Positions 3,192 through 52,971 of a stretch of DNA of 64,000 nucleotides are shown here, in pieces (position 1 is the first letter of the stretch; each line of letters starts with the position of its first letter). The translations under genes were made by a program, and so were the position numbers. The notes under the pieces were generated by a model. The model saw nothing but the letters and a program-made list of their open reading frames with translations. It did no database searches and was not told the origin of the DNA. The stretch comes from an uncultured Paraglaciecola sp. (GTDB lineage: Bacteria; Pseudomonadota; Gammaproteobacteria; Enterobacterales; Alteromonadaceae), in the NCBI RefSeq assembly GCF_943787955.1, contig NZ_CALSOK010000012.1, positions 2,619 through 66,618 on the forward strand. The letters run 5' to 3'.

Positions 3192-4061
3192 CTAAATTCC
3201 ATCACCAAATTCATGTAAACCACATTCTCTTTTTAATCCGAAGAAACGAGTATCTTGTTCATTCATACCTTCTTCCAAAGAGCGAGTACTGTGCCAATCA
3301 CCTATGGATACATAACCTTTTTCCCACAAAGGATGGTACGGCAGATTATGTTTTTTTAAATATAAATGCACATCCTTGTTCGACCAATCAATAATAGGAT
3401 AAATCTTATACTGATTTTTCAACTGCTGCACAACAGGTAAGGTTTCTCGCATGTCAGACTGACTGCGGCGCAATCCAGCAAACCAACTTTTTATTTGCAG
3501 GTCGTTTAACGCTTTTTGCATTGGCTCAACTTTATTCAATGCATTGTATCTTTCTATACCTTCTAAGCCATGCTCCCACAATTTCCCCATACGGGCTTCT
3601 TGCCATGCAGAGGAAGTATCCGAGCGATAAACCTTGAGGTTAAGGTTGAGACGTTCTGTTAACTTATCAACAAACTGATAAGTTTCAGAAAACAAATAAC
3701 CTGTATCTGTTAGTACTACTGGTACACCAGGGTATTGCTGAGTAACCATATGTAACATCACAGCGGCTTGCGCACCAAAACTTGATGACAACATAAAGTT
3801 GTGAGGTAGGTGTTCTAAAGCCCAAGCAATACGTTGTGAAGCAGACTGTTTTTCTAAGGCGATATTAGTTTGCACCAATTCGTCGCCTGAAATACTTAGA
3901 TCTGCACTGTCTGCACTTTCTGTACTTTCTGTACTTTCTGCACTTTCTGCACTGTCTGAACTGTCTGTACTTTCTGTACTGTCTGAACTGTCTGTACTGT
4001 CTATACTGTCTATACTGTCTGTAATGACTATATTGTTAGATTGAGTAGCTTGGGTCATCAT
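3192..4061 (-). CDS. cysH: Phosphoadenosine phosphosulfate (PAPS) reductase with a repetitive acidic Ser-rich N-terminal insert
   Basis: Motifs [36 protein letters not shown] and KRECGLH. The likely start is ATG at 4061 or 4058, overlapping the cysI 3' end. Confidence 0.93.
3901..4017. repeat. 9-bp in-frame tandem repeat, 13 units (TCTGYACTK consensus on +)
   Basis: Read directly from the sequence. Encodes (D/E)S(I/T/S/A) x13 at the CysH N-terminus. Confidence 0.95.
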
Positions 4062-5766
4062 AAAAGTCCTTGGCTGAGTCAAGAACAGGTTTAACCACTT
4101 GTGCTCTGATAACAAAATCACCAAAAGCTTCGTCAGCATCACGTTCTTTAGACCAGCGGGCTATTAAGCAGTCTAACTCGCGCATGATTTCTTTTTCATC
4201 GATATTTTCACGGTACATTCTAGGGATCCGTGTACCTTGACGGTCACCACCTAAATGGAAGTTGTATTTTCCAGGGCCTTTGCCCACTAAGCCAACTTCT
4301 GCCAACATAGACCGGCCACAACCATTAGGACAACCGGTCACACGGTAGATGATACTTTCATCCTGCATGCCATGCTTGGCTAATAGCCCTTCAATCTCTG
4401 TCACTGCATCAGGTAAATAACGTTCTGCTTCAGCCATCGCTAATGGGCATGTTGGCAAAGACACGCAGGCCATCGAATCTTTGCGCTGCAAACTCACATC
4501 ATCAGCCATGAGCCCGTGCTCACGTGCTAGCTGTTCAATCTGCGATTTTTGCTCAGCGGGTACACCAGCCACTATCAAATTCTGATTTGCCGTTAGGCGA
4601 AAATCACCCATGTGTATTTTTGCAATTTCAGCACAACCGGTTTTCAGTGTTTTGCCCGGATAGTCTAAAATACGGCCGTTTTCGATAAACAAGGTAAGGT
4701 GGTGTTTGCCATCTAACCCTTCAACCCAACCAATGCGATCACCGCGTGAAGTAAATTCATACGGTCGACTTTTTGCAAAACTAATTTCTGAGCGTTTTTC
4801 TACTTCCGCTTTAAAATTTTCGACACCTACACGTTCTAAGGTATATTTAGTTTTCGCATTTTTGCGATTAACACGGTTCCCCCAGTCACGTTGAGTAGAC
4901 ACCACCGCTGCTGCTACCGCCAAAGTATGTTCTAAACTAATATAACCAAAGTCATCTGCTTTGCGTGGGAAAGTAGAAGTATCACCATGAGTCATGGCTA
5001 AGCCCCCACCAACCAAGACATTAAAACCAACCAACTTGCCATTTTCGGCAATAGCCACAAAATTTAAATCATTAGCGTGGACATCTACATCATTTTGCGG
5101 CGGAATAACCACTGTTGTCTTAAACTTACGAGGTAAGTAGTTATTACCTAGGATAGGCTCTACTTCAGTTGTTTCTGATTTTTCGCCATCAAGCCAGATT
5201 TCTGCATAGGCACGTGTTTTAGGCAGTAAATGTTCACTGATTTTTTTCGCCCACTCGTACGCTTCTTGATGTACTTCAGACTCTACCGGGTTAGATGTAC
5301 ACAACACATTACGGTTTACATCCCCAGCAGTCGCAATAGAATCAACACCAACCTGATTAAGCATTTGATGCATAGATTTCACATTAGGTTTTAATACCCC
5401 ATGGAACTGAAAAGTTTGACGGGTAGTTAAACGAATACTGCCGTAGATACTTTTTTCTTCAGCAAACTTATCAATAGCCAGCCACTGCTGCGTACTAATA
5501 ATGCCTCCAGGTAACCGAGCTCTTAACATTACATTTTGAAGTGGTTCTAACTTTTGCTTAGCACGCTCTGCACGAATATCGCGGTCGTCTTGCTGATACA
5601 TACCATGGAAACGAATAAGCTGGAAGTTATCGCCAACAAAGGCACCGGTTAAATCATCAGTCAAATTTTCTGCGATGGTTCCACGCAACAAGTTACTTTG
5701 GTCTTTCAAACGTTCGTTATCAGCTAGCTTGCCTTCAACGACGAAATTTTTGTGGTCTTTACTCAT
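4036..5766 (-). CDS. cysI: Assimilatory sulfite reductase (NADPH) hemoprotein subunit
   Basis: [14 protein letters not shown], plus siroheme/4Fe-4S motifs [13 protein letters not shown] and TGCPNGCGR. Confidence 0.97.
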
Positions 5767-7574
5767 TAGTAAACGTCCTTTTGATAACGTTTGGCACGAC
5801 GCAAGTCAGAAATATACTGTTCGGCTTGTTCATCACTTTTTGCACCATGGGCAATCACAATTTGAACTAAAGCGTCTTGCACATCTTTGGCCATATGGTT
5901 GGCGTCGCCACATACATAAATGTGTGCACCTTGCTCAAGCCATTGATAAATCTCAGCGCCTTGTTCAAGCATTCTATGCTGCACATAAACTTTTTGCTCT
6001 TGATCTCTAGAAAATGCCAAGCTGACTTTATTTAATACCCCATCTTTAACAAAACGCTGCCATTCAGTTTGATACAAAAAGTCCTGCGTATAATTAGGAT
6101 TACCAAAAAACAACCAGTTCTCACCACTTGCTTCTTCAGCTTCACGTTGTTGCATGAAAGCTCTAAAGGGTGCGATACCTGTGCCGGGCCCAATCATTAT
6201 AACGGGTGTATTGCCATCATCTGGCAAGCGGAAATTGTCGTTTTTCTCAACAAACACATTGACTTCACCACCTTCATCTAAACGAGTAGATAAAAAGCTT
6301 GAGGCACCACCTTGATGGGCATACCCGTGGGCGTCGTACTCAACTAAAGCAACGGTTAAGTGCACTTCATCTTCCACTTCTGCTTGACTAGAAGCAATAG
6401 AGTAGAGTCGTGGTGTTATCATTCTTAAGGTATCAACAAACTCCTGAGCATTGAGCTTAGCTGGATACTGTCGAACAACATCGATTATTTGACGCTGAGA
6501 CAGATATTCACGCAATACAGACTTATCATCCAACAGTGCATTGAGTTCAATATTGTTTGCGTATTTAGCATATTTTGTGACAAAAGTCGGATAGCTTTGA
6601 GTTAATTCTAATTTATTGATTAAAGCGTCGTTAAAATTGTAATCATCACCTGACCAATTTACTGAGGTATCACCTTGTAAACCAAGTAAAGTAGTTATCT
6701 CATCAACTAGGTTTATATCATTTTTAAACCACACACCTAACGCATCACCTGGGCGGTATTGAATACCAGAATTTTCAAGGGATATCTCAATATGACGGAT
6801 ATCCTTAACTGAATCTCGGCCAGTAATTTTTTGGCTTTCAAGCAGGGTTGCAGTATATGGCAATTTTTTAGTGTATTGACTGGCAACTGCAGCACTAGGG
6901 TGCATATTCAAGGATGGAATAACAGACTGGGAACTCTTTGCACTCAACTCATCTTTTACTTGATGTGTGATGGTGTCGAACCAAGCCGCTACATCTGCGT
7001 CGTAATCAACGTCACAATCAACCCGGTCAGTAATTCTGGTCGCGCCCAAGTCTTGTAAACGTTTGTCAAAGTCTTTCGCTGTTTGGCAGAAAAACTCGTA
7101 ACTTGTGTCACCTAAGCCCAACACAGCAAAGTTTAAATCATTAAGTTTAGGCGCTTTTTTTCCAGCTAAAAAGCTGTGTAGTGCCACAGCATCATCTGGC
7201 GCTTCGCCAATACCGTGGGTACTGACAATAATGACTACATGACTTTCTGTTTTTAGTTGCTTCTGCTTATAGTCAGCCATGCTAACTATTGTAGCAGGGA
7301 TATTTAGCGCATCTAATTTGGCTTTAAATTCCTGTGCCACAGATTTGGCGTTACCCGTTTGCGAACCATATAAGATAGTTAAAGACTTAGCATGGCTGCT
7401 ATCGGGTTGAGCTAAAACAGTAGATTGGCCTGTTTGCGCCATCCCAGCTAAGTAGCCACTCAACCAAGTTAGTTGTTGTGGATTGAGTGAGGCCGTTGCC
7501 TGATGAATTTGAGTCCACTGGTTTTCATTTAAACCTGCGGCAAGCCCAGTGGCTTGATTTATTACTGAAGACAT
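5766..7574 (-). CDS. cysJ: Assimilatory sulfite reductase flavoprotein subunit
   Basis: Flavodoxin motif [30 protein letters not shown], and C-terminal RYQKDVY. Confidence 0.97.
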
Positions 7575-17845: not shown

Positions 17846-18192
17846 GAATGTTCGTTGAGCCAGATGACATTTATTTGCACCTTGAGCATGTTGATTTTAG
17901 AAAGTCGATTAATGGCTTGCTGGCGATTATCGAAAGTGAATTAACATTAAACGCATTCTCCGGTGCATTATTTATCTTCTGTAACAAAAAACAAGACAAA
18001 CTCAAACTCTTATACTGGGATAAAACCGGGTTTGCATTATGGTACAAACGGTTGGAGAAACAACGCTTCAAATGGCCTAAGTGTGGCCAACTCAAACACA
18101 CTAATTTGAGTGAGCAGCAGTTAACATGGTTGCTCGGTGGCTATGATGTCGTTGGACATCGCAGCTTGGATTACACGGCCTCTGGGTTATAA
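17842..18192 (+). CDS. tnpB: IS66 accessory protein TnpB
   Basis: VDFRKSINGL, KLLYWDKTGFALWYKRLEK. Confidence 0.93.
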   Translation: MRMFVEPDDIYLHLEHVDFRKSINGLLAIIESELTLNAFSGALFIFCNKKQDKLKLLYWDKTGFALWYKRLEKQRFKWPKCGQLKHTNLSEQQLTWLLGGYDVVGHRSLDYTASGL

Positions 18193-18269
18193 CGTACGAT
18201 CATAAGTAGCATTTAACGATCACGTTTTAATCTAATTGAAAACAGTCACTTAGGGTTATAATAAGTGAC

Positions 18270-19766
18270 ATGAATAAAGCCCAACTACGCCAACAAATAG
18301 CCGAGCTTAGCAAGCAAGTTGAACGATTAGAAAGTCGCAATCAGTTTCTTGAAGAGCAGTTTCGTCTTGCCCAACAAAAACAATTTGGGGCGAGTAGCGA
18401 AGGTCACCCTGGTCAAGGTGAATTGTTTAATGAAGCAGAAGAGCTGGTTGCTGAAACACCTGTCGAAAAAGAAGACATCAGCTACACACGCAATAAACCT
18501 AAGCGTAAACCATTACCAAAAACATTACCTCGTGAAGTGGTTATCCATGATATTGCACAGGAAGATAAAGTCTGTGCTTGCTGTAACAATGAATTGCACA
18601 AGATAGGTGAAGACAAGACTGAAAAGCTTGAATTCATCCCTGCTCAAGTTAAAGTGATAGAGCATGTTCGTCCTAAGTATGCGTGTCGTGTATGTGAAAA
18701 GGACGGCATTAGCAATCACATCAAACAAGCACCGGTGCCACCTTCAGTTATCCCTAAAGGTTATGCGACACCAAGCTTACTTAGTCAGGTAATCACCAGT
18801 AAATATCAATTTGGGTTGCCACTGTATCGTCAAGAAGCGATGTTCAAACAATACGGTATTGAACTGAGCCGCAAAACTATGGCCGATTGGATGTTGAGGT
18901 GCGCTGACTTGCTCACACCGCTATATGACCATTTACACGAATTGATACTTAAGCAAGGCGTCATTGCCGCTGATGAAACCACCTTAAAAGTCGTCAGCGA
19001 AGATAAAGCGAAATGCTATATGTGGGTGTATACCTCAGGCGCCGACTCACCTGAAGGGAAATTACCCAATACTGACATCCCAAATATCGTGCTGTACGAC
19101 TATCAATCGAGTCGCGCGGGTCAATGTGCCGTGGATTATTTACAGGGTTACAACGGGTATCTACAAGTGGATGGCTATGCGGGTTACCACAAAACCCAAG
19201 CGACACTCGCAGGCTGTTGGGCCCATGCGAGACGTAAATTCGTTGAAGCCAAAACCGCACAGGGCAAAAAATCTAGCGGCAGAGCCGATTGGGCACTTAA
19301 CCATATTCAAAAGCTGTATCGTATTGAAACGCAAATAAAAGCGAGTGCACCTGATAACAGGCGGAAAGTAAGGCAGGAAAAGAGCACTATATTGCTCAAA
19401 CAGTTCGAAGCGTGGCTGATAAAATCAGAGTCGCAGGTATTGGCAAAAAGCAAATTAGGCGAAGCCATCACCTACTGCTTAAATCAGTGGAGTAAACTCA
19501 ACACTTACACCCAATATGGTCACCTGAACATCGATAATAACCGCGCTGAGCGCGCGATAAAACCCTTCGTCATAGGCAGAAAGAACTGGTTGTTTAGTCA
19601 AACGGCCAAAGGCGCTAAGGCCAGTGCCATACTGTACAGCATTATAGAAACTGCAAAGGCAAACGGACTAACGCCGTTCGACTATATGATGCATTTACTT
19701 GAACAAGTCTCGGTTCAAAACACCGATATCGAGCCACTGCTACCATGGCGATTTGCTAAAGACTAG
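18270..19766 (+). CDS. tnpC: IS66 DDE transposase TnpC
   Basis: Zn finger CACC...[47 protein letters not shown]. Confidence 0.96.
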
Positions 19767-19990
19767 GTGGGATTGCCGGACGCTTACTACCTTTCGGCAT
19801 AGTTTCGCAACAAGATTGCTTGAAACAGGACATGACATCAGAGTCGTGCAAGAATTACTGGGGCATGATGATGTAAAAACCACGCAAATTTACACCCACG
19901 TTTTAGGTAAGCATAAATCTGGAGCAATAAGTCCGACGGATGTGAGATGAAAGACTTAAAATATTAGCACACCTATTAGCCAGACTCTTA

Positions 19991-22146: not shown

Positions 22147-23215
22147 TATAGGTAAAATAAAACGTCATTTTTCCTAAAATTAAATTACATGATGCCTTAT
22201 ATTTTCCATATTGACATCTATTTCATATTCTTAAGGGAGTGAAATTCGGCTATTTTTCGTTTATTAATCAACTGTTTCTACGTAATTCAGAATTCAAGAC
22301 AAGCGCTTCCCGCTGTTGTGCAAACCAGCTCTGAATACTGCTTATGATGATGAACGGCTTTTATTCAAACAGACTTATCTGAGGCGGTGCTCGACTTTGT
22401 GGGGGCAATAATTCAACGACTTCGTCATTTTTTGTATTCAGGTGACTGAGTATCTTTTGGATCACCAATGGATGTGCAAATCGGCTTTACTGCCGATTTG
22501 TCAATGCTCGCTATAACCTTAACTGCACCAGCGCGATGCTCACAGGTTTCAATGTCGATGTTAAAAACCCGTTTAAGTCTTTGCGCCTAGGTCATCGATT
22601 AGTGTTTTGTGCCCGTGTTTTTTCCTGCCCTGTCGGCAAGGCTTGTTTAGTCTTATTTCGTAAAGACGGCGTTATTGTCACGCGGTGCCGACTGTTTGGT
22701 GGAGGGCCACCCCGTGGAGGGCCACCCCGTGGAGGGCCACCCCGCACAAATACGCCATGTACTAATTCATCAGGAATGAATTAAGCCAACCAGAGGTTGC
22801 CCGTAGGGTGAGAAACAGGAACGTTTCACATCTAAGCGCCTCAGATTAACGCGGGGTCTGGGTACCAAGGCCGCTAAACGGGCAATAAATTCCAGCGGCT
22901 CAAAGTGCACATGACTGTGCCGGTCACCGGTGGTGCCGTCACGGTAGGGTGTTTTTAGTTTGGAACGCACCTTAGGGTAAGTCGTTATTGCCAACCTTTT
23001 TTATGATACCCCAGAGCGGGACTCTCTTCACAATAAGCAACGGCACAGCCTTTCGAGTTTACCCCTATCCTGTGAGTTGCTCATGACACCTGCATGGAGA
23101 CTGAAGCCTGCCACATTTGCGGCACAGCCTGACGCAAGCCCCTGCTCTGCCATAGGTGCAATGTTTTTTTCGTCCTTGCTGTTTGCCTGTAGCGATGCGA
23201 TAAGTAATGGATTAC
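22147..23215 (-). mobile_element. Degenerate IS91/ISCR-family (Y2 HUH rolling-circle) transposase 3' half plus oriIS-like end, copy 1
   Basis: Minus-strand fragments in order: SITYRIATGKQQGRK, AGFSLHAGV..KLERLCR, SRSGVS*KRLAIT, LKTPYRDGTT..FEPLEFIARLAALVPRPRVNL, HGVF..PNSRHR, MT*AQRLKRVFNIDIETC. The element ends GACGTTTTATTTTACCTATA. Confidence 0.85.
22699..22743. repeat. 15-bp tandem repeat GTGGAGGGCCACCCC x3
   Basis: Read directly. It is an in-frame insertion within the transposase HGVF-APNS motif. Confidence 0.95.
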
Positions 23216-23217
23216 CG

Positions 23218-24645
23218 CTATAGCGTTTTTTTTATTTTCTTGTCGACAGCAATAAATGAAAAATTTATACACATCTCATCATTACTACCAAAACCTCCGT
23301 AAATTGGGTATTCCCAGGGATTGGTATATTCGCATTCAATGCTGATCTTGTAATCTTTTAAATCTTTTTCAGGTAAGACTTTGGGTTTGTGAAAGGTGAA
23401 ATTCCTTTGCCAGTTTAAATCCCAATTATTGATTGTTAGTAATCTTTCACGGTTACCCAATGGATCATCAAGAAATACTTTTCCGGCCTTTCCGTAGCTG
23501 TGCATATGTATATTTGCAGAGTGTAGTTCCAGGTTTTTTATTTCTTTGGATTTTATTTTAAGTATTGACAGAACCCGCCGTTGAATTTTCCTAAAATTTT
23601 CTGTTATTGAATAACTTGCTTCTTGTTTAGAGGGAATTACCATGGTTTTATTTCCCTTGCTATTTAACCATTTTCTATTTGTAATTGTTACAAAGAACCC
23701 GGGTTTTTTAACCTCTTTCTTCGTTATGAAGTGCATTGCGCTGTTTTTATCTGATTCGCCTGGAGCAAACGCTGAGTAATAATGCATTTGTGCGATGATT
23801 AATGCACCAGGTTCAATTGGAATGCCTGTGTCTTTAGGAAATTGAATGCCATTCATTCCTGGAGCCCAGTGTGAAAGAAAATTGATTCCACTATTTATTT
23901 TTCTGCTTAATCCATCTTCAAGTTTGTCTAATGCTGCACGCACACTGGGGTTGCCTAAGCGATCAGGTGCTCCCCCCCCGAAACATTCATAACCTGATCC
24001 TTCTTCCTCTGATTCCATTTTTCTTAAATGAGGAGCAATCTCGGGGGTAGCAGTAAATAATATTAAGTGGTGTATGACTTTTGCGTTTCCCGGTATGGCT
24101 CTTAACCCCGTAATATAAGTCTTCTCTTTCTCTGGCCATTCCATCAAGAAGCAGTGATAGTCGTCTTTTTTATTCTGATTAGGTAAATAACTGTTGCCAT
24201 TGTTAACAATAACTTCTTTATCTGATTTAAATGTTGAATTCTGGGCGGTATAACTGAGTATATTTTTAACTTTTATTAAAGCATTGTTTCGTGCGTAATT
24301 GTTTTCTCCCCATTGTGTGAAAGTACGTATCTCTTCTTTATTGAGAGAGTAGTCATCCTCATATTGTATATGACTTGGCTCTGCCAGCCAGGGCGGCATT
24401 CGGCGCTCTTCTACAGCCGATACCATGGCCGGTCCAAATTTGTAAGCTGTCTCAGGATTTTCAAATGAAAATGATATGCCTGATTCGGAATGACACAGTA
24501 GACAATGATTTTGAAGTATTGGGGTAATATGTTCTTCAAAGGTAATGTCGGCAGTGGCTTTTAGGCATATCAGCGCCGCTGTTGTAATGACTAAGAGTGA
24601 TTTGGTGATTCTCAACCTATCTGGCTTCCACTTGTTGCATAGCAT
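23218..24645 (-). CDS. Secreted copper type II (PHM/DBH-like) monooxygenase with N-terminal c-type heme domain
   Basis: Signal-like N-terminus, CLLCH heme motif and RMPPW. Copper ligands: IHHLILF, AQMHYY, IHMHSYG and DEMCINF. Confidence 0.8.
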   Translation of the reverse strand: MLCNKWKPDRLRITKSLLVITTAALICLKATADITFEEHITPILQNHCLLCHSESGISFSFENPETAYKFGPAMVSAVEERRMPPWLAEPSHIQYEDDYSLNKEEIRTFTQWGENNYARNNALIKVKNILSYTAQNSTFKSDKEVIVNNGNSYLPNQNKKDDYHCFLMEWPEKEKTYITGLRAIPGNAKVIHHLILFTATPEIAPHLRKMESEEEGSGYECFGGGAPDRLGNPSVRAALDKLEDGLSRKINSGINFLSHWAPGMNGIQFPKDTGIPIEPGALIIAQMHYYSAFAPGESDKNSAMHFITKKEVKKPGFFVTITNRKWLNSKGNKTMVIPSKQEASYSITENFRKIQRRVLSILKIKSKEIKNLELHSANIHMHSYGKAGKVFLDDPLGNRERLLTINNWDLNWQRNFTFHKPKVLPEKDLKDYKISIECEYTNPWEYPIYGGFGSNDEMCINFSFIAVDKKIKKTL

Positions 24646-25234
24646 TTATTAACTGACTTTTTGATTCAGAGTTGAGGTGAGATGCGTAACGAAAAACGAC
24701 TTTACCTTCTTTGTTGACCAATAAAATCAATGGTACAGCAGATACATTTAGTTCTGTTAGCAGGTTAGAGCTTGCTTCTGTATAAAAGGCATGTTGATAT
24801 TTTGAGTAGAGCGTGTGTTTTTGAATATAAGTTCTGGCATTTTCATCATTGTTATCATTGTTATCATTGTTATCATTGTTATCAATGTTAATTGATGCAA
24901 AGTTTATCAGTGGAAATTGATCTAAAATCGGATCTAAATCCCATATGATACCCGCGCAGCTATGGCACCAGGGTGCCCAAAATTGAATTAGTGTAGGGCT
25001 TTGAGGCAATTGACTTTGTTTACCCTCCACGATAGTTTTGAGACTGTGATTTTTGGGTATTCGTTGTTCAGAGATTTGGTTTTTAGAAGAGTGTTCTTGA
25101 TGCAACGGGTTTGATGGTTCTTTGGCCGCAAAGGTATTTTGAATCACAAGGGTGCTGGCAGTAATTGCCATAAACATGACTAAAGTAACTGGTACAGGCT
25201 TAAGTTTTTTCTTGGGAGTTCGTTGAGTTGTCAT
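24617..25234 (-). CDS. TlpA/thioredoxin-like periplasmic redoxin
   Basis: N-terminal TM/signal segment, LIQFWAPWCHSC, VSAVPLILLVNKEGKV. Contains (CATTGTTAT)x4 at 24847-24882, encoding NDN repeats. Confidence 0.85.
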   Translation of the reverse strand: MTTQRTPKKKLKPVPVTLVMFMAITASTLVIQNTFAAKEPSNPLHQEHSSKNQISEQRIPKNHSLKTIVEGKQSQLPQSPTLIQFWAPWCHSCAGIIWDLDPILDQFPLINFASINIDNNDNNDNNDNNDENARTYIQKHTLYSKYQHAFYTEASSNLLTELNVSAVPLILLVNKEGKVVFRYASHLNSESKSQLINAMQQVEAR

Positions 25235-25643: not shown

Positions 25644-28600
25644 TTAGTTCCGGACCACCTTGAAATTTTCTGGACCCACTCTAGTTAGCCTATAAGTCGG
25701 TCCTACAGGAAAATCGCCTTTGATGACTTGAGTTTCACCGGTAGATCATTTCACTTCAATAGTGGATACGTTGCCAAACTCAGCCAGGCCAAAGTGAAGA
25801 GTTGGTGCATCAAATGATAGGTAGCCACCGCTGGTTTTGAGTTCTCGAATTTGCTTAAGTGAATCTTCAGGTCCGTAATGAATAATCACTTTGGTACCAA
25901 TACCAAAGTGATTCCCTATATAGTCTCACAGTTCAATATCAATGCTGTTGCCAGAGTCCATTTGATTGAGATGAAAAATTGGCAAGACGTCAAAGGGGAC
26001 TGTGATAATGTCCTGATCACCATCGCTATCTATATCGAGGAACGAGAATGCTCCTGCGGTTAGATGGCTGGTTAAACCAGCTTTTTCGGTTTGGTCAACA
26101 AAATGTTGGCCCTCTATATTGCGTAAGAATTTATTGGATGCCCATTCTTTTTTAATATTCACGCCATTAACTACATAGACATCCTGGCATTGATCGTTGT
26201 CGAGATCAGCAAAGCGTGAGCTCCAGGACCAACCGGTAACGTCCAAACCCCAATCGACAGAGTTTTCTGTAAAGCGCCCATCGGTTTCACAAGTAAACAG
26301 TAGATTTAGTCTTTTTACTACTTCGACATACGGAGTTTTTGGTTTTTCACTTTCCTTTACACGCTTCTCAAGGGTTGGCAAAGTTGGGCAAGTTCTTCCC
26401 ATCGTGTTGAAAACAACGTGCAATATTTATTTTCCTCAGCCCCTTTCAATTAAGGTCGAGCCTTGAGACGGAATAGATTAGTGGTAATGCAATCTTTTTG
26501 GTCCAGGGGGTTGCAAGGTTCAGGCTGGCAAATGGCGTGGGTGCTTATACAGCTTAATGCAAGTTGGCTCTGAGCTCACAATGTTGTCGCCATTTGTTGC
26601 TGCTAATCTCCTTGCAGGCCTTTTCATTGGGTTTGAGGTTTAAGCGTGCTCGCTGACTGGGTTTGTTGCCTGTGGTCTGGGTGAGGAAAAGCTCCAGAGA
26701 CAAGTCATTATTGATGTCAGCTGAGTCGTAACTCATGCTGGTGGAGCCGGATTTAAGTGATAGATTGTGTTCGCGCATAACCAGATTCAGTTCGCCAGAA
26801 CCGTTACCAAAAAACAGACTATCCGGCACGCCAAAATCATTTGCAAAAATGATGTCCATATCACCATCCATATTCAGATCCGAAAATAATATCAAGAGTT
26901 TTGCTCCAGGCGGATCCGGTAAGAGTTCAGCTTGGTAACCAAGAAAACTTGGACGTAATAGTACGTTTCTGGATCGGTCGGTCGTGCGTCTATGTTCTTG
27001 CGTAACATAATTGCCGAGAGCGATTTCCAGCAGTCCATCCTTGTCGAGATCTCCAAAACCGACAGATAGTGCGAAGTCAGCCTCAACTTTGGGTAAAACG
27101 TGTAACTGGGTTGGTGGGAAATGACCTTGCTGGTTATACAATACAAAATTGCCTTTTTTAAATGCAGAAAAGAACACATCCAGCCATCATTGTTAAGGTC
27201 AACCCGCGCAGTAGTGAATATGGTTGTGTCCTCGAACCCATCAAACCCGAGACTGTGTTCGACGTAGTATTGCACCACATCCATTGCATATAAGCGAAGC
27301 TCGTTGTTGACTTTGATTAATAAATCGGTGCGCCCATCGTTATATACATCTCCGGTGGCGATGCCAGCTATTTATATAAACGGTAACAAACCGTGATGCA
27401 TCGATGGACGCGGTAGGTAACCATCTATCCCCATTTGCACGCTGTCTGTGCGTCCGAAAGTTAATTCGTTGCCGCCCTGGCGATCATTATAGGGGCGGTG
27501 TTGTACCTGCAATTGTGGAGTGCTTAGAGATGGTAAATCTTGAAAGGCTAAGGCTGTAGTCTTTAGATCATTAATTAATTTGTCATCACTTGAGCGGTAG
27601 GGAGTGTTTCGCTCGATCATTGTAATCTCGGTGCCGTTGTCTTCGGAAAAGGCTTCATAAAATAATTTCAGATTACGTGCTTGCACATATTTACCAACAT
27701 AGCTCGCTGTGAATCCATCAGCAGCACCCATACCGACTAACACAACAGCAATCGTGGCAGAAACTCTCCAGGAGATTGCATTGCCAATAATTGAAAACGA
27801 ATACACACTGAAAATTCCCAGGGTAAATAACAGCACCATCACATAGCTGGCAGGTAAGCCCGCAGCATATAAAGCCGCACTTATGGCTACGCCAGAGGCG
27901 ATAGGTACCGGCAAAAATAAACCGAACATGGCCGTCAGCCTAATGAATAGCAATTTCTTCCAACGTTTCACGTATTCGATATTTGCAGTAATGGTTTCCC
28001 AGGGCAACACACTGACCAGCAATGCTCCCAGCAGGCCTGCCAGCATCATCAGGGGAATGATTACTCTTATGATAAACCACAGATTATTGGCATAGGCTTT
28101 TGGATACCACAGTGAAGTATGCAGCCAGCTATCTTCTTGTTCGATGTTGATGCCAGCGGGATTGATATCGATTTCACACTGGTCTTCATGGTTTTCCTGG
28201 GCAATGGGCCAGCGTGAAAACAAATATTGGCTCAACAGTGGGATAAGAAGTAAGATGAAGCCAGTGCAAAAATTAGTTTCTGAACCACAAAGCGCAGTGG
28301 TAATAAAGTGAACATCATGATTAACATAATCACATTTAATGTGGGCGAGCTAATCATTGTCGCCAATGTTGTCTCGATGCGTGTCCCCGCATCATGCATA
28401 CCACGAGCAATAGGCGCAAACACCCAGAGGTGCCCCAATAGCGCCCCAAAAAAAGTTATTGGCAAAATGCCCTTTAAAGTAACGTACGCGAAATAGAGGA
28501 ATTAATGTTAAAAAAGCGGCTCCCAATAACACCCCAAAAATCATTCCTTGCTGATTGGTATGAGCCCAGTTAATGTTGGTGCAGGTTACCTTTTTCCATA

Positions 28601-42390: not shown

Positions 42391-42737
42391 GAATGTTCGT
42401 TGAGCCAGATGACATTTATTTGCACCTTGAGCATGTTGATTTTAGAAAGTCGATTAATGGCTTGCTGGCGATTATCGAAAGTGAATTAACATTAAACGCA
42501 TTCTCCGGTGCATTATTTATCTTCTGTAACAAAAAACAAGACAAACTCAAACTCTTATACTGGGATAAAACCGGGTTTGCATTATGGTACAAACGGTTGG
42601 AGAAACAACGCTTCAAATGGCCTAAGTGTGGCCAACTCAAACACACTAATTTGAGTGAGCAGCAGTTAACATGGTTGCTCGGTGGCTATGATGTCGTTGG
42701 ACATCGCAGCTTGGATTACACGGCCTCTGGGTTATAA
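42387..42737 (+). CDS. tnpB: IS66 TnpB
   Basis: Translation identical to 17842-18192. Confidence 0.93.
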   Translation: MRMFVEPDDIYLHLEHVDFRKSINGLLAIIESELTLNAFSGALFIFCNKKQDKLKLLYWDKTGFALWYKRLEKQRFKWPKCGQLKHTNLSEQQLTWLLGGYDVVGHRSLDYTASGL

Positions 42738-42814
42738 CGTACGATCATAAGTAGCATTTAACGATCACGTTTTAATCTAATTGAAAACAGTCACTTAGGG
42801 TTATAATAAGTGAC

Positions 42815-44311
42815 ATGAATAAAGCCCAACTACGCCAACAAATAGCCGAGCTTAGCAAGCAAGTTGAACGATTAGAAAGTCGCAATCAGTTTCTTGAAGA
42901 GCAGTTTCGTCTTGCCCAACAAAAACAATTTGGGGCGAGTAGCGAAGGTCACCCTGGTCAAGGTGAATTGTTTAATGAAGCAGAAGAGCTGGTTGCTGAA
43001 ACACCTGTCGAAAAAGAAGACATCAGCTACACACGCAATAAACCTAAGCGTAAACCATTACCAAAAACATTACCTCGTGAAGTGGTTATCCATGATATTG
43101 CACAGGAAGATAAAGTCTGTGCTTGCTGTAACAATGAATTGCACAAGATAGGTGAAGACAAGACTGAAAAGCTTGAATTCATCCCTGCTCAAGTTAAAGT
43201 GATAGAGCATGTTCGTCCTAAGTATGCGTGTCGTGTATGTGAAAAGGACGGCATTAGCAATCACATCAAACAAGCACCGGTGCCACCTTCAGTTATCCCT
43301 AAAGGTTATGCGACACCAAGCTTACTTAGTCAGGTAATCACCAGTAAATATCAATTTGGGTTGCCACTGTATCGTCAAGAAGCGATGTTCAAACAATACG
43401 GTATTGAACTGAGCCGCAAAACTATGGCCGATTGGATGTTGAGGTGCGCTGACTTGCTCACACCGCTATATGACCATTTACACGAATTGATACTTAAGCA
43501 AGGCGTCATTGCCGCTGATGAAACCACCTTAAAAGTCGTCAGCGAAGATAAAGCGAAATGCTATATGTGGGTGTATACCTCAGGCGCCGACTCACCTGAA
43601 GGGAAATTACCCAATACTGACATCCCAAATATCGTGCTGTACGACTATCAATCGAGTCGCGCGGGTCAATGTGCCGTGGATTATTTACAGGGTTACAACG
43701 GGTATCTACAAGTGGATGGCTATGCGGGTTACCACAAAACCCAAGCGACACTCGCAGGCTGTTGGGCCCATGCGAGACGTAAATTCGTTGAAGCCAAAAC
43801 CGCACAGGGCAAAAAATCTAGCGGCAGAGCCGATTGGGCACTTAACCATATTCAAAAGCTGTATCGTATTGAAACGCAAATAAAAGCGAGTGCACCTGAT
43901 AACAGGCGGAAAGTAAGGCAGGAAAAGAGCACTATATTGCTCAAACAGTTCGAAGCGTGGCTGATAAAATCAGAGTCGCAGGTATTGGCAAAAAGCAAAT
44001 TAGGCGAAGCCATCACCTACTGCTTAAATCAGTGGAGTAAACTCAACACTTACACCCAATATGGTCACCTGAACATCGATAATAACCGCGCTGAGCGCGC
44101 GATAAAACCCTTCGTCATAGGCAGAAAGAACTGGTTGTTTAGTCAAACGGCCAAAGGCGCTAAGGCCAGTGCCATACTGTACAGCATTATAGAAACTGCA
44201 AAGGCAAACGGACTAACGCCGTTCGACTATATGATGCATTTACTTGAACAAGTCTCGGTTCAAAACACCGATATCGAGCCACTGCTACCATGGCGATTTG
44301 CTAAAGACTAG
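42815..44311 (+). CDS. tnpC: IS66 transposase TnpC
   Basis: Translation identical to 18270-19766. Confidence 0.96.
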   Translation: MNKAQLRQQIAELSKQVERLESRNQFLEEQFRLAQQKQFGASSEGHPGQGELFNEAEELVAETPVEKEDISYTRNKPKRKPLPKTLPREVVIHDIAQEDKVCACCNNELHKIGEDKTEKLEFIPAQVKVIEHVRPKYACRVCEKDGISNHIKQAPVPPSVIPKGYATPSLLSQVITSKYQFGLPLYRQEAMFKQYGIELSRKTMADWMLRCADLLTPLYDHLHELILKQGVIAADETTLKVVSEDKAKCYMWVYTSGADSPEGKLPNTDIPNIVLYDYQSSRAGQCAVDYLQGYNGYLQVDGYAGYHKTQATLAGCWAHARRKFVEAKTAQGKKSSGRADWALNHIQKLYRIETQIKASAPDNRRKVRQEKSTILLKQFEAWLIKSESQVLAKSKLGEAITYCLNQWSKLNTYTQYGHLNIDNNRAERAIKPFVIGRKNWLFSQTAKGAKASAILYSIIETAKANGLTPFDYMMHLLEQVSVQNTDIEPLLPWRFAKD

Positions 44312-44559
44312 GTGGGATTGCCGGACGCTTACCTAAAAGCGGCTCAGGACTTCGGTATTAAACACCTTCTGGCTGTTAGCAACCCTGATAGTCAGCAACC
44401 TGTTAGAGAGATCAGCGAGTTTCCATCAATACAGGACTATCGTTATTTGCTGGACGATATAGAAGCGAACCCGTTTATTAATTGAATTGGGATTAGGACA
44501 AATTAATTAAACGCTCAATAACCATAAATCATAGTGATTGTAAAACTGTCTTAACTGTT

Positions 44560-45303
44560 TTAAAACTGAATCGGATAATATCCATCAGCATCAGCTTTAC
44601 CAAAAAACTGTGCGGCCTGATGTACTTCTTTTGGTAAGCTGGCTTCGGGTTTAAAGCGTCCTATAATTTTAAAGTTCATGTTGGCTGGAATAATTGTTTT
44701 AGCCGTCAAACCAAAACGGTTAGGTGGTTTAACATCGACCACTACACTGCCATTTTCACAGCTTAAGTTAGCATTAAAGTTACCTAAGTCAATCACGCCA
44801 GTGATGCCAGTAAAGTTAGCGTTTAACCATTGGCCTTTACCTGTAAATTTTTGACATCCAGCCTCATAGTCGACTTCATCTAGCTGCACCTTGAAACGTC
44901 CGTCAGCTTGCACGGGAATAGGTAATGGTAACAAACTGATCACTAAGTCGGTGGGTATGTAAGCCAGTAAGTTTTCTACTTCTAGATGCTGGCCTTTAAA
45001 ACTAATATATCCGTTTGCTGATATTTGTTCGACATCACGTATATTGCCGACTTTTAGCTGTGCGCTTATCTCGCCTAATAACAATGGGAAAAAAGAAAGT
45101 GTCCAGTTGACATCAGACACCGGCAAGCTATTTATTTGTGCTCTTTGCGCATGACCATTCCAAATGGTGCCCGATATGCCACCCACACTAATTCCTTTGG
45201 CCAGCTGAATTTTCGATAAAATATGGACTGCAGGTAAGTTAACAATTAAAAATACAAAATAAACCACAAGGCATAAGCTGCCCCATTTCAAAACTGACTT
45301 CAT
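44560..45303 (-). CDS. gspN: Type II secretion system protein N
   Basis: N-terminal TM, GTIWNG; last gene of the gsp operon. Confidence 0.85.
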   Translation of the reverse strand: MKSVLKWGSLCLVVYFVFLIVNLPAVHILSKIQLAKGISVGGISGTIWNGHAQRAQINSLPVSDVNWTLSFFPLLLGEISAQLKVGNIRDVEQISANGYISFKGQHLEVENLLAYIPTDLVISLLPLPIPVQADGRFKVQLDEVDYEAGCQKFTGKGQWLNANFTGITGVIDLGNFNANLSCENGSVVVDVKPPNRFGLTAKTIIPANMNFKIIGRFKPEASLPKEVHQAAQFFGKADADGYYPIQF

Positions 45304-45779
45304 GATTTCCCTAGTTTTAAACGACGAATTTTAACTTGCCCAGGCAAATCAGATGCTGTGATATCAATGTCTAATATGCTGACTCCCGTTTTTTCCATGG
45401 ACTGTAACCAACTCAGTATGTCATTAAAGGGGGCTTGATCAATCCAAACTTGTAATTCGTCACCTTGAGGTTGCATCCGAGAAATAGCAATTTTCATGCG
45501 GCTAGCTGATTGATTTACTGCTTGAGGCAAGGAACCAGAAAAGCGCGTGTTGTTGTCACCACTACTGCGCAGTTGAGCAGCTCGATTAGCATTTTTCTGT
45601 ACCCATGCAAGTAATTCTGTTTGATTGTTAACGGCGGATTGACCTCGCTCTAGTGAAGTATTTAATGGCGACCAAATACCCCAGTAAAATATCGCTACTA
45701 TTACTAACACCGCTGAAATAATCACTAAGCGTTGTTCACGCTCACTTAGTTGTAAAAATGTACTTTTTAGCTTGTCCAT
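45300..45779 (-). CDS. gspM: Type II secretion system protein M
   Basis: LSEREQRLV..YWGIWSP; position in the operon. Confidence 0.9.
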   Translation of the reverse strand: MDKLKSTFLQLSEREQRLVIISAVLVIVAIFYWGIWSPLNTSLERGQSAVNNQTELLAWVQKNANRAAQLRSSGDNNTRFSGSLPQAVNQSASRMKIAISRMQPQGDELQVWIDQAPFNDILSWLQSMEKTGVSILDIDITASDLPGQVKIRRLKLGKS

Positions 45780-45780
45780 A

Positions 45781-46989
45781 TTAACTCCTAATCGACAACG
45801 AGCCGATTACCTGATTGTCTTTTTGATTAATAGAGCCTTGCTCAACGGTAAACCCTTGGGCTTCTGCTTGACGCTTAAACTTGTCTAAGGCATCAAAATT
45901 ATTGGCAACAACTTGAATACGCAATTCTGCCCGACTACTGTCAAAGCGTATAGTTTGAGGTTTAACCTGAGATGCTGAAAATGCGGGCTCGAGTTGACTC
46001 AACATAATTAACATCGATGCACCACCACCACTTTGCTCTAAGGTTTTCATTTGGCGCGTCATGGTGGTTCTGAGATCGCGATATGCCCCTGCCTTAGGAA
46101 ATGCACGTTTGTATTCGCTACTAACCTGTGCCTTTAAAGTGGCTAGTTGCTCATTCAGTCGATTTTGCTCTAGGCTTTTATCAATCAAAGTGGTGAACAA
46201 TGCAACCACTGCCAAAACCGCGGCTAAACGCCATTTTTTCCATTGACCGCCAACTTTGTTGCTTATTTTGTATTCGCCTTGCAACAAGTTGAATGTCGCT
46301 GATTTCACCCCTTGTGCTAGCACCTTCATGGGTAATTCAAGAGGCATAACCGACACATCAAGATTCTTTATATTAGTCAAATTTGTAGCAGAATAGTCAT
46401 TAACTAAAAGTGCTTGTTCGGTGTGTTTAGCGTGTTGTCGAGCCAGATGGTTAATGGCTTGGATTAGCCAGTCTCTCTCACCCTGTAAGCCTGCCCAATC
46501 ATCTTTGCGGACCAACAGCTGCTCACCCAACGCTAAGATAGACCACGCATTTTTATCTGCTAATGGCAAAGCTAAAACGTCGGGTATGAGTTGATCGCAG
46601 GCTAATCCAGCCTGTTCAATTATACTCAGCCAACTTATTAGTTTTTCTTTGTTTACTACGGCGACTGCCTGCTTATTTCCATCTTTTGGGCCAAAGGCAA
46701 AAAATTGCTGAGAAATATCGCCACTTATTTCTTCTTCTAAGATAAACGGAATAGCGGCTAAGGCTTTACGTCCAGCTTTAGGGGGTAACTCCACCCATTT
46801 AAGTAAAATGTCGCTGGTGGGCACTAAGGCACAAATCGGTCTTCTACCCGCCCTGTCTGCTAAAGTGGCCAATTGAGCCGCATCTGGCAATTCACCAGAG
46901 GCAATAATGTCGTTTTGTTGGCTAGACCACACAATCCAATGAATCGGTTCATCTGGATTGGCACCTAGGCGCACTACTAACTGTTCCAT
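45781..46989 (-). CDS. gspL: Type II secretion system protein L
   Basis: AIPFILEEEI, IPDVLALP, FNLLQGEY. Confidence 0.92.
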   Translation of the reverse strand: MEQLVVRLGANPDEPIHWIVWSSQQNDIIASGELPDAAQLATLADRAGRRPICALVPTSDILLKWVELPPKAGRKALAAIPFILEEEISGDISQQFFAFGPKDGNKQAVAVVNKEKLISWLSIIEQAGLACDQLIPDVLALPLADKNAWSILALGEQLLVRKDDWAGLQGERDWLIQAINHLARQHAKHTEQALLVNDYSATNLTNIKNLDVSVMPLELPMKVLAQGVKSATFNLLQGEYKISNKVGGQWKKWRLAAVLAVVALFTTLIDKSLEQNRLNEQLATLKAQVSSEYKRAFPKAGAYRDLRTTMTRQMKTLEQSGGGASMLIMLSQLEPAFSASQVKPQTIRFDSSRAELRIQVVANNFDALDKFKRQAEAQGFTVEQGSINQKDNQVIGSLSIRS

Positions 46990-47067
46990 AAGGTCTATAT
47001 ACCTTGTTGCTTATAATGGATTAAAAAAGCTATTTTGTTAAAAGCCAGCTCGTTAAAAACTAGTCTG

Positions 47068-48054
47068 TTAAAAGCCACTAAAGTCACGCCTGATGATACT
47101 GACATTATTACTTGGGTCGACCTTAAACAAGGTTTGCATAGCAAAAGTAGCATCATTGTACTGGGCCTTAGTGTGTAAAATAAAATGGAATGTTTTTACT
47201 TTTAAGCGTTTTTGTTTATCACTGCTCAGTTTCAAGGCTTGGATACTGGGTAAAGCCAAAAAGCTTGCGACATCTTTAAACCCCTCAGGATCTCGACTGG
47301 CCAGTACGGAATTAGTGTCAGATAAACTGAGTCCAGTCGCGGCAGCAAGAACGGCAGCGTTTTCTTCGCTTACCGTGTTGACGTTAATTTCAAATAAATT
47401 ATTATTGGGTAGCACACACGCTAATTCTAATAATTCTCTCAGCCAAGTCATTTCTACTCCGTTAATCAAACGCAATTCTGACTTATCAACCATATAGTTA
47501 TTAGCTGCAATATAGGGGAATTGACGACTTTCGTATTCGCTGTCTTCGGCTCCAACATCCTGCGGGTTGTTGTCTGTGTCTAACCAATCAACAAGTGAGT
47601 CTCGCACTAAATCACGGTTATAACTAGGGATCTCTGGTTCAATATTATCTAATAAGTCCATAAAAGCCTCTTTCCGAGCAGCCAGCAAAGATGTACCGCC
47701 TTCCCCAGAAGTAGCAACCTTTAACGCATTCAGATTAAAACAGCTTTGCATATCAATTAGCTGTGCTTGAATGCCTCCACCTTCAATAGGGTAGATAAAC
47801 TCTTGATTCCATGGCTGTTCAAGGTGAATAACCTCACCATCTTCTTCCATCAGTTTTTGAATGGATTTTCGCGCATATTGCTCAGCGCCCATGGCATACC
47901 AATAGGCCTGATTGTTGTCTTTTATGTTGGAGGAACGTTTAATTTGTAACTGTAAACGGCCACCCATTTCTGTCGCCAGTACACTTACAATAGCCACAAT
48001 TAATAACACTATGATTAAGGCAACCCCTTGCTGCTTGGGTTTAATATATATCAT
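47068..48054 (-). CDS. gspK: Type II secretion minor pseudopilin K
   Basis: QQGVALIIVLL, DMQSCFNLNAL, INVNT. Confidence 0.93.
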   Translation of the reverse strand: MIYIKPKQQGVALIIVLLIVAIVSVLATEMGGRLQLQIKRSSNIKDNNQAYWYAMGAEQYARKSIQKLMEEDGEVIHLEQPWNQEFIYPIEGGGIQAQLIDMQSCFNLNALKVATSGEGGTSLLAARKEAFMDLLDNIEPEIPSYNRDLVRDSLVDWLDTDNNPQDVGAEDSEYESRQFPYIAANNYMVDKSELRLINGVEMTWLRELLELACVLPNNNLFEINVNTVSEENAAVLAAATGLSLSDTNSVLASRDPEGFKDVASFLALPSIQALKLSSDKQKRLKVKTFHFILHTKAQYNDATFAMQTLFKVDPSNNVSIIRRDFSGF

Positions 48055-48683
48055 ATGCCATTGGCCAAGATAAATTCACGACGAATTTCACCAAAGGTTT
48101 TGCTGACTAAGGTAATAGAAATCGCAATAGGTATGTTTGCATTAGAGTAGCTTTCTTCCCATTCTTCAGGCTTTTCTAATTGCTCAACCTCAGTTAAAAA
48201 ACTGACTCGAAAATCTTCAATATCTGACAACAGGATTTTTATTTTAGGCTCGTAGCCAATCACGTTGTCTACATAATTGCCGTACAAACGTTGCAGTTGT
48301 TCTTCCTGTAAACGATAACCAATAGCTTGCAGTGTGCTGCGAGGTAACAACATTTGTGGGTTATGCCAGCCTGCTCGCACAAATCCAAGGCCGTCAGCAT
48401 CACTGTTTAGTACATCTTCGCCACCGGATATTACTGCACTTACTGGCTCGCCATTAACACGTAAAGCACGAGGCACAATCTGCAATATATCTCGTTCAAT
48501 AGTCAGCATGGCTCTTTGTAATTCTTCCAATTTAGCGAAGCGCTCAGAAGACAGTTGGTCGCTGTTAATTACCGAGTTAAGCACACCGGTACTCGCCAAG
48601 CCGATAAGTGTAAAAATCGCCATAGCCACCATTATTTCTATTAGGGTAAACCCGCGTCTATGACTATTTGGCATACTAATCAT
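48051..48683 (-). CDS. gspJ: Type II secretion minor pseudopilin J
   Basis: RGFTLIEIMVA prepilin motif, GWHNPQMLLPRS. Confidence 0.93.
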   Translation of the reverse strand: MISMPNSHRRGFTLIEIMVAMAIFTLIGLASTGVLNSVINSDQLSSERFAKLEELQRAMLTIERDILQIVPRALRVNGEPVSAVISGGEDVLNSDADGLGFVRAGWHNPQMLLPRSTLQAIGYRLQEEQLQRLYGNYVDNVIGYEPKIKILLSDIEDFRVSFLTEVEQLEKPEEWEESYSNANIPIAISITLVSKTFGEIRREFILANGI

Positions 48684-49084
48684 TTTGTTGTTTGCTTAGC
48701 GATAAAGGTACTTGCCGAGGTCACAGTGCCTTGGTATTGCTCGTCCAAGCCAACAGACACAAGCACTTGCACCATGTCATTATCGTTGGTTTTAGTGACT
48801 CGCTGTTGCCAGTACCATTTTTGGCCACCCATTTCTTGCTCGCCTTTCTGATTGTTTTTGACCGGCCAAGTCGTATCTATGTGAAGTTGTGTAAGGCGAT
48901 TGTTGGCAACCCAAGTGGCAAAGGTAATATCTTCAATTTGTGCAACCCCTGTCAGATGATCGCTTGCTGCCTTCATGATAGCAGTGCCTGTTAGCGCAAA
49001 AATGAACATCGCTATCAAGACTTCAAGCAAGGTCATCCCAGATAGGTATTTGACTTTTTTTGTATGTAGACTGTTAGGGCGCAT
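48680..49084 (-). CDS. gspI: Type II secretion minor pseudopilin I
   Basis: GMTLLEVLIA, ATWVANN. Confidence 0.92.
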   Translation of the reverse strand: MRPNSLHTKKVKYLSGMTLLEVLIAMFIFALTGTAIMKAASDHLTGVAQIEDITFATWVANNRLTQLHIDTTWPVKNNQKGEQEMGGQKWYWQQRVTKTNDNDMVQVLVSVGLDEQYQGTVTSASTFIAKQTTK

Positions 49085-49706: not shown

Positions 49707-49727
49707 GTTAGCTGGTAGTCAATTTAA

Positions 49728-52969: not shown

Positions 52970-52971
52970 AA

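Follow-up and report, generated by a model that had tools for sequence, protein, structure and literature searches.

How would a bacterium run the two-copper hydroxylation chemistry of animals, and what would reload the enzyme outside the cytoplasm? The textbook cases of a copper monooxygenase whose two copper sites are uncoupled are PHM, DBH and tyramine beta-monooxygenase, and the route that electrons take to the electron-accepting copper (CuH) and across to the copper that binds O2 and substrate (CuM) is still debated. To our knowledge, enzymes of this type have been studied almost only in animals, where soluble ascorbate reloads the enzyme. Here, we investigated a gene that raises this question in an uncultured Paraglaciecola sp., a marine gammaproteobacterium of about 40% G+C, within a stretch of 64,000 nucleotides (contig NZ_CALSOK010000012.1, positions 2,619 to 66,618) that we call the window throughout. 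The gene joins a putative c-type cytochrome domain to a PHM/DBH-type two-copper core, and it lies directly downstream of a gene for a thioredoxin-fold protein. Our favoured reading, of moderate confidence, is that its product is a PHM/DBH-type enzyme which works in the periplasm, hydroxylates its substrate with O2, and receives the electrons for CuH from heme c rather than from ascorbate.

The monooxygenase gene is an intact open reading frame (ORF) of 475 aa at 23218..24645, with zero internal stops on translation. A preliminary description, made from the letters of the window alone, had already called the gene intact, leaving its strand (minus) unstated; the signal-like N-terminus and the motifs that it had picked out (CLLCH, RMPPW, IHHL, QMHY, IHMH and EMC) are all present, and translation confirmed their coordinates. 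The features of the gene and of its upstream partner are as follows.

23218..24645, minus strand: whole gene, predicted exported-type heme c / two-copper PHM-DBH-like monooxygenase (ORF list, Pfam, homologues, fold)
24556..24645, minus strand: signal-like N-terminus, residues 1-30, with a basic stretch, the hydrophobic core SLLVITTAALICL and then LKA/TAD (translation)
24271..24555, minus strand: putative monoheme c-type cytochrome domain, residues 31-125 (weak Pfam matches, PDB profile match)
24490..24504, minus strand: CLLCH, heme c attachment motif, residues 48-52 (C48, C51, H52; invariant in alignments A1, A2 and A3)
24388..24399, minus strand: M83-P-P-W86, within RMPPW (residues 82-86), with M83 as candidate sixth (axial) heme ligand
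23779..24177, minus strand: CuH (electron-accepting) domain, Pfam Cu2_monooxygen, residues 157-289 (Pfam, Foldseek)
24067..24072, minus strand: H192-H193, within IHHL (residues 191-194), CuH ligands by alignment to the HH pair of DBH and to H107/H108 of PHM
23782..23784, minus strand: H288, within QMHY (residues 286-289), third CuH ligand by alignment to H172 in the LQVHY of PHM; invariant
23260..23547, minus strand: CuM (O2- and substrate-binding) domain, Pfam Cu2_monoox_C, residues 367-462 (Pfam, Foldseek)
23500..23508, minus strand: H380-M-H382, within IHMH (residues 379-382), CuM ligands by alignment to H242-x-H244 of PHM and the HTH motif of DBH
23272..23274, minus strand: M458, within EMC (residues 457-459), CuM methionine ligand by alignment to M314 of PHM and the EEMC of DBH; invariant
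23407..23409, minus strand: Q413, within WQR, core glutamine by profile alignment to Q272 of PHM; invariant in A1, A2 and A3
24617..25234, minus strand: partner gene, thioredoxin-fold protein of 205 aa with a hydrophobic N-terminus, membrane-anchored or exported (Pfam, conserved adjacency)
24956..24967, minus strand: C90-H-S-C93, redox motif of the partner, within WCHSC (residues 89-93; translation)

The co-occurrence of all the monooxygenase motifs in one ORF is far beyond chance. Two start sites can be read: the first ATG, at 24645, produces a 29-nt overlap with the upstream thioredoxin-fold gene on the same strand, and an alternative TTG at 24613-24615, just past the stop codon of that gene, makes the two genes abut and yields an N-terminus that is 10 residues shorter and closer to those of the homologues. 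All motifs are untouched by this choice. The region equivalent to residues 1-30 is of the signal or lipoprotein type in the relatives. NCBIfam assigned no family to the monooxygenase.

The modelled catalytic part of the protein has the PHM/DBH fold. Pfam PF01082 (Cu2_monooxygen) matches the window protein at 41.1 bits (cut-off 30) and PF03712 (Cu2_monoox_C) at 22.5 bits, just under its cut-off of 23, and both domains are present in all 26 relatives scanned. Relatives were gathered in three alignments, A1 with 26, A2 with 27 and A3 with 13 sequences. As a plain sequence against the PDB, the protein found human DBH as its sole relative (E=0.023); the family profile A2 reached DBH at E=1.6e-16 and rat PHM at E=2.7e-12, with ligands aligned on ligands. 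An AlphaFold2 model computed from 26 homologues (pLDDT, the predicted local distance difference test, 83.4; pTM, the predicted template-modelling score, 0.81) was compared with the PDB by Foldseek, and the best 31 matches are all DBH or PHM (E 5e-16 to 1.4e-12), with about 340 aligned columns and target template-modelling scores of 0.39-0.40 for the longer DBH chains and 0.59-0.69 for PHM. After this block comes a gap, and then unrelated jelly-rolls at E 1e-6 or worse. The preliminary description had named the gene a PHM/DBH-type copper monooxygenase with a full ligand set and had proposed superposition of a predicted structure on PHM; the Pfam domains, the Foldseek matches and the alignment of all six copper ligands onto those of PHM and DBH bear it out.

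In HMMER alignments, the HH, H, HxH and M of the window protein fall onto H107/H108, H172, H242/H244 and M314 of PHM and onto their DBH equivalents, so that the HH pair and distant histidine of a CuH site are represented by H192, H193 and H288, and the HxH and methionine of a CuM site by H380, H382 and M458. The profile A2 alignment further places Q413 onto PHM Q272, and C165 and C459 onto PHM C81 and C315. Because PHM has the disulfides C81-C126 and C293-C315, the cysteines C165 and C459 would, by analogy, pair with C221 and C438, respectively, giving one disulfide per domain. The heme-motif residues C48, C51, H52, M83, P84 and P85, as well as the copper ligands H193, H288 and M458, are invariant in all three alignments. 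H380 and H382 join them in A2, which extends down to 24% identity, and when A2 and A3 are taken together, C48, C51, H52, M83, H193, H288, H380, H382 and M458 stay invariant down to 23% identity. The remaining positions deviate little: H192 occurs in every sequence of A1 and A3 and in 90% or more of those of A2, and H380 is found in 25 of the 26 sequences of A1, with both histidines of HMH invariant in A2 and A3.

The family is large. A word-indexed search retrieved 233 full-length homologues of 450-485 aa, all of them labelled hypothetical protein except one UniRef entry, whose name is taken from the Pfam copper-monooxygenase domain. In an exhaustive HMMER search of 1.84 billion cluster representatives (50% identity), 11,315 matched at E<=1e-3, 6,011 at E<=1e-10 and 1,501 at E<=1e-30, many of the matches being 420-480 aa long and aligned from the cytochrome domain onward. 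Judged from one-genome-per-species contigs, the close clade belongs in its majority to Gemmatimonadota, and extends to Gammaproteobacteria (Colwellia, Wenzhouxiangella, Woeseiaceae, Kangiellaceae, Lysobacterales and Alteromonadaceae) and Oligoflexia (Pseudobacteriovorax and Oligoflexus). Cultured carriers include Colwellia sp. 75C3 and Pseudobacteriovorax antillogorgiicola. Some members, of 830-880 aa (P0203, P0207, P0213, P0224 and P0234), carry a second cytochrome c domain before the heme-PHM module and also a long uncharacterised C-terminal extension, and another (P0237) shows a weak match to the DUF5122 beta-propeller after the copper domains. Two further matches cover the C-terminal part only, namely residues 181-468 in Paraglaciecola sp. 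MB-3u-78 (L066) and residues 107-467 at locus L044; these may be truncated or degraded gene copies.

Sequence comparison points to homology between the N-terminal domain and known c-type cytochrome domains, namely PccH and, in relatives, Haem_bd. CLLCH follows the signal-like N-terminus, as expected of an exported heme c protein, and M83, given its invariance, is the obvious candidate for the axial ligand. In the window protein itself, the Pfam family Haem_bd (PF14376) stays below threshold (E=0.78), and in the homologous domain of the distant relative P0203 it scores 49.4 bits (cut-off 27), with the MPP region covered. Among the 26 relatives, weak Pfam matches were obtained to PccH in 14 (best 7e-4) and to Cytochrome_CBB3 in 11 (best 1.5e-3), and Cytochrome_CBB3 rises above its cut-off in relatives. 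Against the PDB, the profile A2 found the Geobacter monoheme cytochrome PccH (4rlr) at E=5.5e-5. The family profile reached the heme site of hydrazine synthase as well, and what the matched proteins share is a helix followed by the CxxCH motif (Y..DI.PI....C..CH); the N-terminal helix and CxxCH also unite the window protein with PccH and Haem_bd, the alignment to PccH spanning about 24 residues and the matches of the window protein itself lying under the cut-offs. The isolated domain was modelled with a pLDDT of 70.9, and the full-length AlphaFold2 model is of low confidence exactly at residues 50-60 and 87-91, which would be the heme pocket modelled without its heme. The invariance of CxxCH and of the MPPW methionine, together with the kinship to PccH and Haem_bd in relatives, supports the cytochrome domain that had been proposed for this gene.

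The preliminary description overlooked the thioredoxin-fold partner immediately upstream: the enzyme belongs to a two-gene unit, which is fused in other phyla. The partner matches the Pfam families Thioredoxin_8 (32.7 bits, cut-off 27) and Thioredoxin (31.7 bits, cut-off 23.5). In NCBIfam it meets DsbE, ResA, TlpA, StoA and the thioredoxin domain of PilB-type MsrAB below threshold, and for three of these it lies far under the cut-offs (DsbE 29.9 versus 123, ResA 17.9 versus 170, TlpA 14.5 versus 230); it is a separate thioredoxin-fold lineage. Among 72 genome loci analysed by ORF clustering and Pfam spot checks, 14-15 related ones, all of Pseudomonadota or Pseudobacteriovorax, have a homologous partner gene 0-2 nt upstream of the monooxygenase gene, and the partner proteins at these loci carry WC[HRGN]SC. 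Within the partner gene of the window, a 9-bp tandem repeat of 5.1 copies (24845-24890) encodes an (Asn-Asn-Asp)n insertion; at 24876, one metatranscriptome contig has one 9-bp unit more, which shows that the population is variable in repeat number.

The same two parts are joined in a single chain elsewhere. One relative of 1,251 aa (P0219) consists of Redoxin, cytochrome c-PHM-like, Thioredoxin_8 and again cytochrome c-PHM-like regions, and as a query it retrieved 1,344 proteins at E<=1e-10, mostly from Planctomycetota and of 690-790 aa, which are labelled redoxin domain-containing protein, peroxiredoxin or thiol-disulfide isomerase. In these proteins, an N-terminal thioredoxin-fold domain is fused to the cytochrome c and PHM-like module, and every heme and copper ligand is kept. 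Such a combination of adjacency in one lineage with fusion in another is a classic sign of a functional link, and the partner is functionally tied to the enzyme. This uncharacterised redoxin/peroxiredoxin family (about 690-790 aa) can be regarded as the fused counterpart of the Paraglaciecola pair: it has the same invariant ligands, and differs in being 23-25% identical to the window protein, in having lost the structural cysteines C165, C221, C438 and C459, in bearing extra C-terminal regions, and in replacing WCHSC by CPLA.

The fold, the ligand set and its conservation, the cytochrome-type homology, and the thioredoxin linkage and fusion are the established ground of the mechanism that we propose, and from them we infer which cofactors are bound, which way electrons flow, what reaction takes place and on what kind of substrate. 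The enzyme and its partner would be made from a translationally coupled two-gene unit, and the enzyme would be exported by Sec to the periplasm. There, heme would be covalently attached at C48 and C51, with H52 and probably M83 as axial ligands, and two coppers would be bound, CuH at H192/H193/H288 and CuM at H380/H382/M458. In PHM/DBH-type enzymes the two coppers lie about 11 Å apart across a cleft and are not magnetically coupled, and in the animal enzymes the electrons for turnover are supplied by ascorbate. The fused heme c and the periplasmic setting suggest a protein-borne donor instead; the supply of electrons by the enzyme's own cytochrome domain, as the preliminary description also had it, is a reasonable expectation. 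Per turnover, the heme c domain would pass two electrons, singly, to CuH, while O2 would be bound at CuM and used there to hydroxylate a C-H bond of the substrate, which is probably something other than a peptide with a C-terminal glycine. As for the partner, it would either keep the CxxCH cysteines reduced for heme attachment, in the way that ResA and CcmG keep apocytochrome cysteines reduced, or act as a periplasmic reductant that reloads the heme, and the fusions favour a role beyond maturation.

Comparison with known systems sets out what is shared and what is not. The core of PHM (rat PAM; PDB 1PHM, 1OPM and 1SDW) has the same two-domain beta-sandwich (Foldseek E about 1e-14 to 1e-15) at 14-16% identity, and has in common with the window protein the three histidines of CuH, the two histidines and methionine of CuM, Q272, and the positions of C81 and C315, one per domain. 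PHM, however, uses soluble ascorbate, whereas the window protein has an N-terminal heme c domain; moreover, the latter is bacterial, predicted to be periplasmic and without a PAL lyase partner. Human DBH (PDB 4ZEL; PMC4846438), considered together with tyramine beta-monooxygenase and MOXD1/2, is both the best PDB sequence match and the top Foldseek match; it shares the EMCxN motif, in which the window protein is nearer to DBH than to PHM, and it likewise has an extra N-terminal domain before the CuH-CuM core. In DBH, a DOMON domain precedes the catalytic core (PMC4846438). This domain is without covalent heme, in contrast to the CxxCH cytochrome c domain of the window protein, in which Pfam has zero matches to DOMON; the dimerisation domain of DBH is also absent from the window protein. 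An analogy for the electron supply is offered by RpNiR of Ralstonia pickettii, where a tethered cytochrome c is the built-in redox partner of a copper nitrite reductase (PMC13324648, PMC6038957): its c-type cytochrome, fused to a two-copper enzyme, delivers electrons to the electron-accepting copper, as we propose for the window protein. The likeness ends there, as RpNiR is a cupredoxin trimer of unrelated fold, has its cytochrome at the C-terminus, and reduces nitrite rather than carrying out O2-dependent hydroxylation.

The gene pair sits in a stretch rich in insertion sequences (IS), with an IS91-like fragment, IS66 twice, IS3, and fragmented FG-GAP and GAF genes. Three of its features can be placed exactly.

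22770-22994: IS91/Y2-type transposase fragment of 74 aa, just downstream of the monooxygenase gene
22699-22744: 15-bp tandem repeat in 3 copies, next to the IS91-like fragment
18000-19788 and 42545-44332: IS66-family element in two 100%-identical copies, each with a 498-aa transposase

The identity of the IS66 copies suggests recent transposition. Upstream of the pair, an FG-GAP/VCBS-repeat gene (25926-27284, minus strand) is split into several ORF fragments and is probably a pseudogene; at a Woeseiaceae locus (L029), an intact FG-GAP_2 protein is encoded just downstream of the homologous pair, which may be a coincidence. The rest of the window has ordinary gammaproteobacterial chromosome content, such as CysIJ (4036-7574), EnvZ (59992-61293) and a Gsp type II secretion cluster (44560-55991, minus strand; of its members, GspD, E, F and L were scanned). 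Rfam gave zero matches within the 64 kb, and a scan for promoters and terminators returned no more sites than in shuffled sequence. Ocean metagenome contigs, TARA contigs among them, encode a 99%-identical protein together with the same partner gene. One environmental contig (L073) is collinear with the window, at 97% identity, between 26243 and 22944, and beyond either end the two diverge at insertion sequences; its collinearity stops at 22944, inside the IS91-like fragment, where it has a 1,672-aa PAS-domain gene instead. The gene pair is thus intact in environmental contigs despite flanks rearranged by insertion sequences.

Four other explanations have to be weighed against a cytochrome-fed hydroxylase. 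The thioredoxin-fold partner could be the real electron source, reloaded through a DsbD/CcdA-type relay, in which case the enzyme would be fuelled by thiols and independent of the respiratory chain. The tight gene coupling would agree with this, as would the fusion of the thioredoxin fold to the cytochrome c-PHM module in Planctomycetota (1,344 matches) and its double occurrence in P0219, which is more than would be expected of a mere maturation factor, and a dithiol would deliver exactly the two electrons needed per turnover. We nevertheless consider this explanation doubtful: no DsbD or CcdA was found among the window ORFs scanned, the partner scores far under the NCBIfam cut-offs of every named thiol-disulfide reductase, and a universal role as dithiol donor is argued against by the single-cysteine CPLA in place of CxxC in the Planctomycetota fusions and by Gemmatimonadota members that have no such neighbour. 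That the protein is no hydroxylase at all, but part of a periplasmic redox-defence or oxidase system turning over, for example, peroxide or thiols with O2 or H2O2, appears to us clearly unlikely. The labels peroxiredoxin and redoxin on the fused relatives, with a strong AhpC-TSA match in P0219 (132 bits), and the zero count of conserved substrate-pathway genes nearby would fit such a system; the labels, however, are automatic annotation, and the full set of CuH and CuM ligands, the CuM methionine and the equivalent of PHM Q272 are invariant over deep divergence, a ligand set that is the signature of the PHM/DBH hydroxylation machinery.

Very little probability can be given to a PHM-like role in bacterial peptide amidation, with glycine-extended peptides as substrates, for all that the fold and copper sites are those of PHM. 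In PHM, R240, Y318 and N316 are the residues that we take to anchor the substrate carboxylate and backbone (PDB 1OPM); the positions of the carboxylate binders R240 and Y318 correspond here to N378 and F462, neither of which is kept across the wider family, EMCxN is more DBH-like than PHM-like, and no gene for a PAL lyase or a precursor peptide lies nearby. A PAM-like role was dropped as the leading idea for these reasons, and the glycine-extended peptides that the preliminary description had put forward as substrates are not favoured. It is equally improbable that we are dealing with a non-functional or decaying gene in a variable region, as its surroundings of IS91-like, IS66 and IS3 sequences and fragmented FG-GAP and GAF genes might suggest. 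Between the window copy and four environmental copies (L073-L076) there are three amino acid differences (V145L, D240E and N255H) and zero silent ones, and at these residues the environmental copies have the family consensus, from which the window copy departs; yet three substitutions are too few to be interpreted as relaxed selection, the same pair is intact in many marine metagenomes, and a pseudogene was rejected because the frame is intact and every ligand is present.

Several observations count against the cytochrome-fed hydroxylase that we favour, the three unaccompanied substitutions among them. In a Foldseek search against the PDB, the isolated N-terminal domain found nothing better than E=3, with cytochrome c6 at E>4, so that its cytochrome fold is suggested by sequence and not by structure. 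The gene is present in metatranscriptome assemblies, in one contig together with the junction to the partner gene, but these contigs are not counted as proof of expression because coverage is equally flat over the gene, pseudogenes and intergenic DNA. Some 40 Gemmatimonadota loci have no thioredoxin neighbour, and a hidden Markov model built from the gammaproteobacterial partners gave zero matches upstream in these loci; the CPLA motif of the fusions adds to this wherever a dithiol donor is assumed for all members. In the 72 loci, the thioredoxin-like gene is the sole recurrent neighbour and none points to a substrate, the neighbours that occur once being PGI, a short-chain dehydrogenase/reductase (SDR), a pyridoxal-phosphate (PLP) enzyme, an HDOD protein, a methyl-accepting chemotaxis protein (MCP) and a methyltransferase. 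Finally, the full-text literature, with few subscription journals covered, yielded no paper on a bacterial cytochrome c-PHM/DBH fusion, and a 2025 review of PHM does not mention bacterial homologues.

In its fold, metal sites and general chemistry, the window protein is a member of a well-known enzyme family; its c-type cytochrome domain, its coupling to a thioredoxin-fold protein and its place in a bacterial periplasm set it apart from that family. A bacterial version with a covalent, spectroscopically visible heme donor would permit direct measurement of electron transfer from heme to CuH and on to CuM. Such a scaffold may also be easier to express, without the need for ascorbate, and hence be of interest for biocatalysis. 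Since the more than 1,500 distinct clusters (E<=1e-30) and the fusion family of 1,344 matches carry no annotation beyond hypothetical, redoxin or peroxiredoxin, a substantial and environmentally widespread oxygenase chemistry awaits assignment. A bolder reading, which we regard as speculative and unlikely, would unite all parts in one electron wire, running from cytoplasmic NADPH through a DsbD-type relay, the partner dithiol and heme c to CuH and CuM, as a new class of hydroxylases. If true, these would be periplasmic C-H hydroxylases that are self-sufficient, fuelled by thiols and independent of ascorbate; they would be spread widely over Planctomycetota, Gemmatimonadota, Gammaproteobacteria and Oligoflexia, and their substrates would form a class that has so far had no link to copper monooxygenases.

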